Origin: a virus
DNA length: 64,000 nucleotides
Direction: 5' to 3' (one strand)
IMG/VR virus record: IMGVR_UViG_3300027904_000001
The translations under genes were made by a program, and so were the position numbers. The notes beneath the pieces were generated by a model that worked only from the letters and a program-made list of their open reading frames with translations, was not told the DNA's origin and did not search any database. Positions 42,442-43,140 of the stretch are shown one piece after another; the first letter of the stretch is position 1; the number at the start of each line of letters is the position of its first letter.

Positions 42442-43140
42442 TTGAATATGAAAAAAGAAAGGATTGGTTATCCCTTAATGTTGGAAAAAGATTTAACAGC
42501 TGAAACAAAGAAAATAAAAGATTATCTAAGTAAAGTTGAATGTTGTCAACGATGCGGTTCTGGGAATGCAGGTATCATTACTGATTGGATGAGAGTCCCG
42601 AATAAAACATTTTTGATTGGAATATATCAAATTAAATGTTTAACATGTAACACTAAAAGCCCATTTTCCGATAATTTGCACTTAGCCATAGATTCATGGA
42701 ATCAATTATGGAGCGAATGCAATTATTGGGAAATAAATTATTATGGGTTTAATCCAGAAAAACAAGTACAAACGATAAATAAAGATGAACGAGTATTTGA
42801 CAAAGATTTAAAACAAAAAGTTACGGACATTTTAGATGATTTAGAAATCAATCCTAAATTGCAGGGTTATCACTTCTTGCGAGAAGCAATAATTTTGATA
42901 GTTCAGGATGTGCAGTACTTGCAAAGGATTACAAAGGTTCTATATCCAACAATTGCAAAGAATTATAATAGTACTGGCAGTAGGGTTGAAAGATCAATAA
43001 GACATGCGATTGAGCTGGCTTATAATAATGGCAAATTAGGTAATAAAAATAAGCCTACAAACGGTGATTTTATGGCCTCTGTTGCTGAAAAATTAAGAAT
43101 GAATAATAGATTTGATTATACGAAAAAGGAGATGGTATAA
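42442..43140 (+). CDS. Zinc-ribbon plus Spo0A C-terminal (Spo0A_C) DNA-binding domain protein
   Basis: [35 protein letters not shown] is the Spo0A_C recognition-helix region. N-terminus CCQRCGSG...CLTCN. Confidence 0.6.
   Translation: [232 protein letters not shown]

Follow-up and report, generated by a model that had tools for sequence, protein, structure and literature searches.

A receiver-less Spo0A effector domain joined to a probable zinc ribbon and encoded beside an MVP-like gene on a phage genome

The virus record IMGVR_UViG_3300027904_000001 of the IMG/VR database was analysed as a stretch of 64,000 nucleotides (hereafter the window), which is phage DNA throughout. It contains a gene for a protein whose C-terminal half displays the domain that binds DNA in Spo0A, the regulator that decides sporulation in Firmicutes, whose spores are a refuge from phage. 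The gene and the parts of its product are the following.

42448-43140, plus strand: gene of the protein with a probable Lar-like zinc ribbon and a Spo0A_C domain; uninterrupted open reading frame (ORF) with an ATG start, 230 amino acids (232 with the alternative start TTG at 42442)
42538-42711, plus strand: N-terminal segment CxxC...CxxC...AIDSWN, probably a Lar-like zinc ribbon (residues 31-88)
42820-43095, plus strand: Spo0A_C effector (DNA-binding) domain (residues ~125-216), from Pfam, PDB sequence matches and the structure model
42976-43026, plus strand: recognition helix (residues 177-193), from the alignments and as helix 177-193 of the model
43036-43041, plus strand: site of a 12-residue deletion at helix alphaE, between L197 and G198 (12 gap columns in the alignments)

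The ATG at 42448 is the start agreed by two independent gene callers, the identical protein of 230 residues being called in a metagenome-assembled genome (MAG) of NCBI named 'Firmicutes bacterium' (FWC41_00085) and in two ENA assemblies. The Pfam profile Spo0A_C (PF08769) is matched over its entire length (positions 1-104 of 104) with 93.7 bits for a cutoff of 25 (E=8.4e-27), and the PHROG families 37855 (E=1.8e-27) and 24603 (E=1.6e-17) are also recovered. With the algorithm phmmer, the only PDB sequences detected are the Spo0A effector domains 1FC3 and 1LQ1 (E~1e-24). An AlphaFold model obtained from an alignment with 30 homologues has a predicted local distance difference test (pLDDT) score of 86-97 over residues ~120-220, and its comparison with 1FC3 and 1LQ1 by Foldseek gives target template modelling (TM) scores of 0.81-0.91 and root-mean-square deviations of 1.2-1.6 A; no other PDB fold is found below E=0.9, the next one being at E~1. 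It is thus near certain that the gene product carries a full-length Spo0A_C domain with the Spo0A effector fold. A first-pass annotation, made from the sequence alone, had claimed such a domain directly upstream of an MVP gene and had proposed a hidden Markov model search with PF08769, of which the absence of a match would have spoken against it; the search, the PDB matches and the model confirm the domain, the peptide quoted there is the stretch from helix C to the recognition helix, and the adjacency is exact (stop codon 43138-43140, MVP ATG at 43142).

The effector domain displays 43-48% identity with host Spo0A proteins and the recognition helix is near-identical. The residues S210, R211, E213, R214, R217, H218 and E221 (numbering of the Bacillus subtilis protein) are all kept in the alignments. 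The phage protein differs from the family pattern SRVERAIRHAIE by one A-to-S exchange, all Arg, Glu, His and Ser being conserved; every Ser, Arg, Glu and His is also retained with respect to the comparison sequence SRVERAIRHAIEVAW, with polar and charged residues intact. Since the effector fold is the same and the recognition helix near-identical, the phage protein is expected to read the same 0A box as Spo0A. The isolated DNA-binding domain of Spo0A binds legitimate targets without phosphorylation, and the consensus 0A box predicts binding (PMC3485338). Because the isolated effector domain recognizes true targets in the unphosphorylated state, binding of 0A-box DNA (TGTCGAA) by the phage protein would be constitutive and independent of phosphorylation. 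Judged from these residues, it is likely that the protein binds 0A boxes.

Two parts of Spo0A are missing. No Pfam match to the receiver domain (REC, PF00072), which bears the phospho-acceptor Asp, is found in the protein, whose Pfam matches are limited to Spo0A_C and a weak match to Lar. The Spo0A equivalog model TIGR02875 gives 113 bits for a cutoff of 200 and is aligned at its positions 141-260 only. The second missing part is internal to the effector domain. In the alignments to 1FC3, 1LQ1, B. subtilis Spo0A and the 30 homologues, a clean gap of 12 residues lies between '...AYNNGKL' and 'GNKNKPTN'. The deleted stretch corresponds approximately to the B. subtilis residues 230-242 (DSISSLFGYTVSM), numbered back from the C-terminus, that is to helix alphaE, and the model displays five helices with a loop (residues 194-204) where alphaE would be. 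From the genetic work of Buckner, Hatt, Kumar, Moran and co-workers, we take the residues ~227-240 of B. subtilis Spo0A to be the region that activates sigma-A. The region is marked as the sigma-A activator region in PMC4690370, where mutations in it fail to activate sigma-A promoters and where an in-frame deletion of 8 residues inside it renders Clostridium pasteurianum asporogenous, like a spo0A knockout. Given the deletion of alphaE and this phenotype, full activation of sigma-A-dependent sporulation promoters by the phage protein is unlikely. Since the surface for activating these promoters is missing, the protein would act mainly by occupancy, as a repressor or as a competitor of host Spo0A~P.

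The genomic context is also distinct. The true spo0A loci that were fetched have recN and spoIVB upstream, and this order (recN - spoIVB - spo0A) is not present at the phage gene, whose neighbours are small hypothetical genes upstream (with a T5orf172/GIY-YIG gene ~1.8 kb away) and the MVP-like gene downstream.

Relatives in IMG/VR are represented by 292 stretches confirmed by tblastn, of which the best 80 were examined. Among these 80, 16 contain a full-length spo0A with REC and correspond to host DNA or prophage flanks, and at least 41 distinct ORFs of 91-226 amino acids are devoid of REC. The neighbours of the latter are (pro)phage genes: an integrase and XRE/ImmA genes 2-4 kb upstream on the other strand at ~7 loci and, elsewhere, genes for Rad50-like ATPase, SSB, DnaB-like helicase, primase, metallo-beta-lactamase, dCMP deaminase, terminase and portal. 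Helix alphaE (FGYTVS) is kept in most phage homologues. Gaps of 6-12 residues are found in L036, L046, L048, L092, L094 and L096 (L numbers designate the loci compared), and they differ in length and in flanks from one locus to another. Several viral homologues, including some that lack alphaE, start with heptad-like helical stretches (e.g. MIGTENEILRKEVEQLKAEIAGMKSIL); the partly alphaE-less examples L046 (2666-3127), L048 (5860-6333) and L096 (5818-6333) suggest, on the basis of this periodicity, a constitutive dimerisation helix in place of the receiver domain.

In the phage protein studied here, the place of the receiver is occupied by the Cys-rich segment, with the residues C33-x2-C36 and C64-x2-C67 followed by A80-I-D-S-W-N. 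The top family match in two independent libraries is the Lar restriction-alleviation zinc ribbon, in both cases below the curated cutoff: TIGR03655 (E=1e-4, 22.5 bits for a cutoff of 39.6) and PF14354 (E=0.03, 15 bits for a cutoff of 28.6). No significant PHROG match was obtained for the N-terminus. The models of residues 1-116 are of low confidence (pLDDT 27-52; 38 for the single-sequence model), and the alignment-based model resolved the C-terminal domain only. The N-terminal zinc ribbon proposed in the first-pass annotation is supported only in part: the CxxC...CxxC...AIDSWN motif and the rank of the Lar family speak for it, the scores below cutoff and the poor model against it; the segment is probably a Lar-like zinc ribbon.

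This segment is an orphan as far as can be judged from the databases searched, and its fusion to Spo0A_C appears there as a singleton. A HMMER search with the N-terminal 118 residues among 1.84 billion representative proteins (E<=1e-3) recovered only the protein itself, a word-indexed search of 5.8 billion clusters yielded no second protein covering both halves, and no homologue of the N-terminal domain was detected in IMG/VR or in species-representative genomes. The CxxC...CxxC ribbon is present in 0 of the 41 distinct viral REC-less homologues, whose N-terminal parts are short and for the most part helical. With Lar (anti_R_Lar, restriction alleviation of the Rac prophage), the segment shares the pattern CxxC ... 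CxxC ... A-I-x-x-W-N. However, the Lar proteins are small and stand alone, whereas the phage module is fused to a DNA-binding domain, and no role in restriction alleviation is implied. We propose that the ribbon stands in for the receiver as a constitutive module of oligomerisation or partner binding, a place that short coiled-coil-like N-termini would take in other phage versions.

The gene is followed within two nucleotides by that of the MVP-like protein, and the pair is delimited by the features listed below.

42368-42390, plus strand: terminator-like hairpin AGAGCC-GCAA-GGCUCU with a run of seven T, at the end of the upstream transcription unit
42395-42401, minus strand: perfect 0A-box core TGTCGAA (TTCGACA on the plus strand), ending 8 nt upstream of the -35 element, its centre 12-15 nt upstream
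42410-42437, plus strand: promoter-like site with -35 TTGCAA, a 16-nt spacer and the extended -10 TGaTAGAAT (9 of 12 positions matched, TG present)
43142-45697, plus strand: MVP-like gene, 851 amino acids, with its ATG 1 nt after the stop codon TAA (43138-43140) of the Spo0A_C gene
45802-45853, plus strand: 15-bp stem with T-runs after it, resembling a terminator, at the end of the two-gene unit
45890-45918, plus strand: strongest promoter match of the region, TTGACT-17-TATAAT, located after the terminator and without 0A box

The first hairpin has a folding energy (dG) of -11.8 kcal/mol (z -3.4; 2 of 200 shuffled sequences fold as well) and the closing stem of -18.5 kcal/mol (z -4.8; 0 of 200). 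In comparison with shuffles of this AT-rich DNA, no enrichment of promoter-like matches is observed, and the site 42410-42437 is proposed from its position only. As its -10 element ends 10 nt before the ATG at 42448 and no Shine-Dalgarno sequence is visible before either candidate start, the mRNA, with a predicted start near 42444, may be nearly leaderless. The AAGGAG of the MVP-like gene is located at 43126-43131, inside the 3' end of the Spo0A_C gene. The MVP-like protein matches MVP_shoulder (E=1.2e-22) and Vault_3 (E=4.3e-9) and no PHROG family; neither it nor the Spo0A_C protein matches a defence-system model of PADLOC at E<=0.01. From this arrangement, the pair of genes resembles a moron, as a self-contained cassette with a terminator-like hairpin at each end. 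Relatives of the MVP-like protein (36-47% identity) were found on 12 IMG/VR contigs of 14-402 kb (L001-L012). A conserved pairing with Spo0A_C was considered and rejected, none of these 12 loci having a Spo0A_C or zinc-ribbon gene within 6 kb. Phage MVPs have been described so far only in a preprint of 2023 on two gut phages, in which Spo0A is not mentioned.

Past the terminator, the first gene (45996-46451, plus strand) lies behind the promoter 45890-45918 and codes for a protein of PHROG 11237. Weak relatives of this protein are encoded 1.4-1.7 kb downstream of spo0A genes in L030 (7733-8098), L031 (2247-2609) and L039 (2672-3034), where prophages probably adjoin the host spo0A. The next gene, two genes downstream of the MVP-like gene, codes for a protein similar to Tad2 (Thoeris anti-defence 2; 46492-46968, plus strand, E=4e-8).

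The box 42395-42401 is the sole perfect 0A box in the intergenic DNA of the 64-kb window. From the 7.4 boxes expected per 64 kb, ~0.006 would be expected by chance in the ~52-bp interval between the terminator and the start codon. This single site is suggestive as a candidate regulatory site, and its sequence and surroundings are identical in the two assemblies, with no variation in the promoter region. As the only intergenic consensus box sits in the operon's own promoter, control of the Spo0A_C/MVP operon by host Spo0A or by its own product is possible. The box would wire the operon to Spo0A, and the operon could be switched on by host Spo0A~P, turned down by its own product, or both.

The rest of the window does not extend this picture. 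Five perfect boxes are present where 7.4 +/- 2.8 are expected, which is no enrichment. The degenerate motif TGNCGAA occurs 35 times for 25 expected (4 of 100 shuffles reach 35), and 5 of these 35 are intergenic, as is 14% of the window. The 12 kb around the window start contain one further box, in coding sequence. A phage-wide 0A-box regulon was thus rejected, the perfect boxes being 5 for 7.4 and TGNCGAA being spread according to coding and intergenic length. A box upstream of the gene was also rejected as a family trait, since no perfect box is found in the 8.6 kb preceding the 41 distinct viral homologues (background 0.11 per kb). The first-pass annotation had suggested a search of the window's promoters for TGTCGAA-like motifs; this search retains the one at the Spo0A_C operon, and none is found within the window at the promoter regions before packaging or head genes. 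Its idea of a dedicated late regulator of the MVP and packaging genes finds little support, the boxes being not enriched and absent before the packaging genes and the MVP pairing being not conserved.

These data bear on another explanation, in which the protein is a regulator internal to the phage, acting on middle or late genes or on its own operon and using the Spo0A fold as a mere DNA-binding scaffold, with no role in host sporulation. The replication and modification block (29-40 kb) on one side and the packaging genes on the other enclose the gene, a position at which late activators are often encoded in phages of Firmicutes. It is predicted to share a transcript with the MVP-like gene, its promoter having a 0A box, and the homologues of L036, L057, L065 and L096 have the terminase small subunit gene 1.2-4.4 kb downstream. 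However, besides the distribution of the boxes, the strong promoter 45890-45918 is devoid of box, the loss of the activating helix speaks against a classical activator, and the MVP pairing is not conserved. The homologues of many other phages also lie in the early region, by an integrase/XRE/ImmA switch and replication genes and away from late genes. We consider this explanation unlikely.

Replication could be the target instead. Castilla-Llorente et al. are said to have found in 2006 that Spo0A acts at oriC and at the phi29 origins, and the phage protein would, by analogy, stop or time replication by occupying host-origin 0A boxes overlapping with DnaA boxes, or sites at the phage origin. Such a role needs DNA binding only, which is consistent with the loss of the activation helix, and many viral homologues lie among genes for SSB, DnaB-like helicase, primase and Rad50-like ATPase. 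However, neither the window nor the 6.7 kb preceding it contains a cluster of 0A boxes that could mark a phage origin, and the proposal is drawn from analogy. It is very improbable.

Concerning the phage itself, the window encodes replication proteins (AAA_24, a DnaD-like protein and a DnaB-like helicase), methylases, ERCC4, T5orf172, Tad2-like and ParB-methylase proteins, and packaging and head proteins (TerS at 49504, TerL at 49928, an SPP1-type portal, scaffold and capsid). The DNA that immediately precedes the window codes for an Amidase_2 endolysin, a holin, a Kelch-repeat protein, Phage_rep_O, helix-turn-helix (HTH) proteins of the XRE type and YopX. An ENA contig of 89,136 bp and the contig of the window are circularly permuted with respect to each other: two marker genes are spaced differently in the two, by exactly one full contig less 141 bp, the k-mer overlap of the assembler. 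The element therefore assembles as a complete circle of ~89.0 kb. The examined parts of the genome show no integrase and include an actin-like segregation gene, so that a plasmid-like prophage lifestyle is possible. Four further homologues encoded on this genome are listed here.

13247-14374, minus strand: SpoIIP homologue (E=3.7e-46)
15463-16512, plus strand: actin-like segregation protein (ALP_N)
17616-19451, plus strand: FtsK/SpoIIIE-like translocase (PHROG 1358, E=4.7e-39)
19448-20842, plus strand: SpoIID-domain protein (E=7e-27)

The engulfment machinery has two hydrolases, SpoIID and SpoIIP. By these sequence matches, Spo0A_C together with the SpoIIP, SpoIID and FtsK/SpoIIIE homologues makes this one phage unusually rich in genes related to sporulation. 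The list of phage-enriched sporulation genes published in PMC10294663 does not include SpoIIP; a yitB-type PAPS reductase is on it. The window has two genes of the PAPS-reductase family (21865-23061, minus strand, and 30540-31286, plus strand; one with DUF3440), for which a role in DNA modification is at least as likely. The packaging and head module contains, between the large terminase (49928-51238) and the portal (59658-61211), an unusually long insertion of ~8 kb (51239-59657) made mostly of small unannotated ORFs, one of them with an HTH_36 domain (54947-55807).

The presence of these genes is relevant to the opposite reading of the protein, that of a constitutive Spo0A mimic which forces the Spo0A-ON state and so drives sporulation or other stationary-phase programmes, for instance with the phage genome trapped in the spore. 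The phage SpoIID, SpoIIP and SpoIIIE-like genes act later in the same pathway, removal of the receiver makes the effector independent of signals (PMC3485338, and argued in PMC10294663), and phages of the phi29 family use Spo0A sites for entrapment in the spore (PMC2731898). However, alphaE is deleted, and a smaller deletion there abolishes sporulation in a real Spo0A (PMC4690370). The SpoIID-type hydrolases and FtsK-like translocases of phages also have plausible uses outside sporulation (PMC10294663). We regard such a mimic as quite unlikely. The first-pass annotation had proposed that the protein could 'mimic or compete at 0A boxes': from the sequence, competition is the part that is best kept, with an intact recognition helix, and mimicry the part that suffers from the deleted alphaE and the missing receiver.

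The reading that we favour is that of a phage transcription factor built from the Spo0A effector domain, in which an orphan Lar-like ribbon, probably binding zinc, takes the place of the receiver and from which the sigma-A-activating helix alphaE is deleted. As a phosphorylation-independent binder of 0A boxes, it would compete with host Spo0A~P or repress in its place, blocking or delaying the activation of Spo0A-dependent sporulation genes and still reproducing the repressive effects of Spo0A. The most likely outcome would be that entry into sporulation is damped or vetoed. We give this reading as a whole a probability of about 0.5.

Several points weigh against it. Recognition of DNA, the sites targeted and any effect on spore formation are deduced from sequence, and a host that sporulates and has 0A-box-controlled genes is an assumption. 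The last helix retains VAEKL, presumably the equivalents of A257/D258/L260 and a second activation-related region; with this motif in place, some activation, e.g. at sigma-H promoters, is possible. The equation of alphaE with the sigma-A-activating region comes from the B. subtilis genetics and from a general statement in PMC4690370. Most phage homologues keep alphaE, and the family as a whole need not be a pure competitor. The box 42395-42401 is one 7-mer, found after looking for it, and a perfect box is present within 200 bp upstream in 0 of the 41 distinct viral homologues.

A more elaborate version joins the box and the operon partner to the competitor: Spo0A~P bound at 42395-42401 would turn on the operon, and hence an activation-dead look-alike together with a vault-like shell protein. 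This decoy circuit, triggered by Spo0A itself, is speculative and rather improbable. If true, the look-alike held by its ribbon would jam the 0A boxes and veto the sporulation decision, as part of a toolkit (with SpoIIP, SpoIID, the SpoIIIE-like translocase and the actin-like segregation protein) for living in a spore-forming host or escaping from it.

If the favoured reading is true, the protein would be a compact natural dominant-negative of Spo0A, independent of signals and unable to activate sigma-A promoters. It would provide a mechanism by which a phage vetoes dormancy, and possibly a tool against clostridial sporulation. Current understanding is not overturned; the class is already described and the functional claims are inference. 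Until now, truncated phage spo0A genes had been listed in catalogues only, and two concrete features are added here, the precise loss of alphaE and the exchange of the receiver for an orphan, probable zinc ribbon, on a genome that also carries three more homologues of sporulation genes and a homologue of vault protein.

Some spo0A-like sequences in the collections are bacterial. The entries MT835504, MT835718, MT835737 and MT835743 (L013-L016), recovered by tblastn from the curated phage collection and deposited from human faeces as 'UNVERIFIED: Bacteriophage sp.', were rejected as bacterial spo0A loci: they contain recN - spoIVB - full-length spo0A, or V-ATPase/LysR neighbours, and correspond to contamination. 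The number of 'phage spo0A' genes may be overestimated where it is taken from such collections. Receiver-less proteins similar to Spo0A of ~172 amino acids (P0052, P0104 and P0119) are also encoded on long bacterial contigs of Lachnospiraceae, P0052 being seen on 83 contigs of up to 197 kb. In L102 (2449-3354; contig CAJTQI010000007.1 of a Lachnospiraceae MAG), a glycogen-synthase-like gene is located downstream of the receiver-less gene, as at the full-length spo0A of L013, and recN and spoIVB are not upstream. These Lachnospiraceae genes look like chromosomal spo0A minus the receiver domain.

Among the known systems, the closest in fold is Spo0A of Bacillus and Clostridia, which shares the effector fold and the near-identical recognition helix. 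The phage protein differs from it by the absence of the receiver, of the phospho-acceptor and of alphaE and by the presence of the probable Lar-like ribbon; it also fails the TIGR02875 cutoff and is not in the recN-spoIVB-spo0A context. Phages phi29 and Nf are wired to the host Spo0A signal via 0A boxes (PMC2731898), and one consensus box lies at the promoter of the present operon. In phi29, however, early promoters and origins bear several functional sites and no Spo0A homologue is encoded, whereas the present phage has a single putative site and its own Spo0A-like protein. Other viruses carry homologues of host master regulators, such as the sporulation sigma factors of phages (cited in PMC10294663) and the CtrA homologues of alphaproteobacterial phages (PMC9437464); such proteins presumably read or rewrite the cell-fate decision of the host. 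They belong to protein families different from that of the Spo0A_C protein. The phage sigF and sigG homologues have experimental support, with a reduced spore yield (as cited in PMC10294663), whereas the Spo0A_C protein is known from its sequence.

The nearest relatives are the truncated spo0A genes carried by phages of Firmicutes, of which Schwartz et al. (2023, mBio; PMC10294663) listed 29 receiver-less homologues from gut viromes, without experiments, and for which they proposed an action on sporulation without host signals. These genes (PHROGs 37855 and 24603) have in common with ours the REC-less effector domain, the type of phage and a function that is proposed; they differ in being devoid of the CxxC ribbon, in mostly keeping alphaE and in never being paired with an MVP-like gene (0 cases). 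A receiver-less phage spo0A is thus a known kind, from which the present gene stands apart by three differences: the N-terminal fusion, the loss of alphaE and the operon partner. The loss of alphaE is common to a minority of phage homologues, and the fusion and the operon partner are unique.

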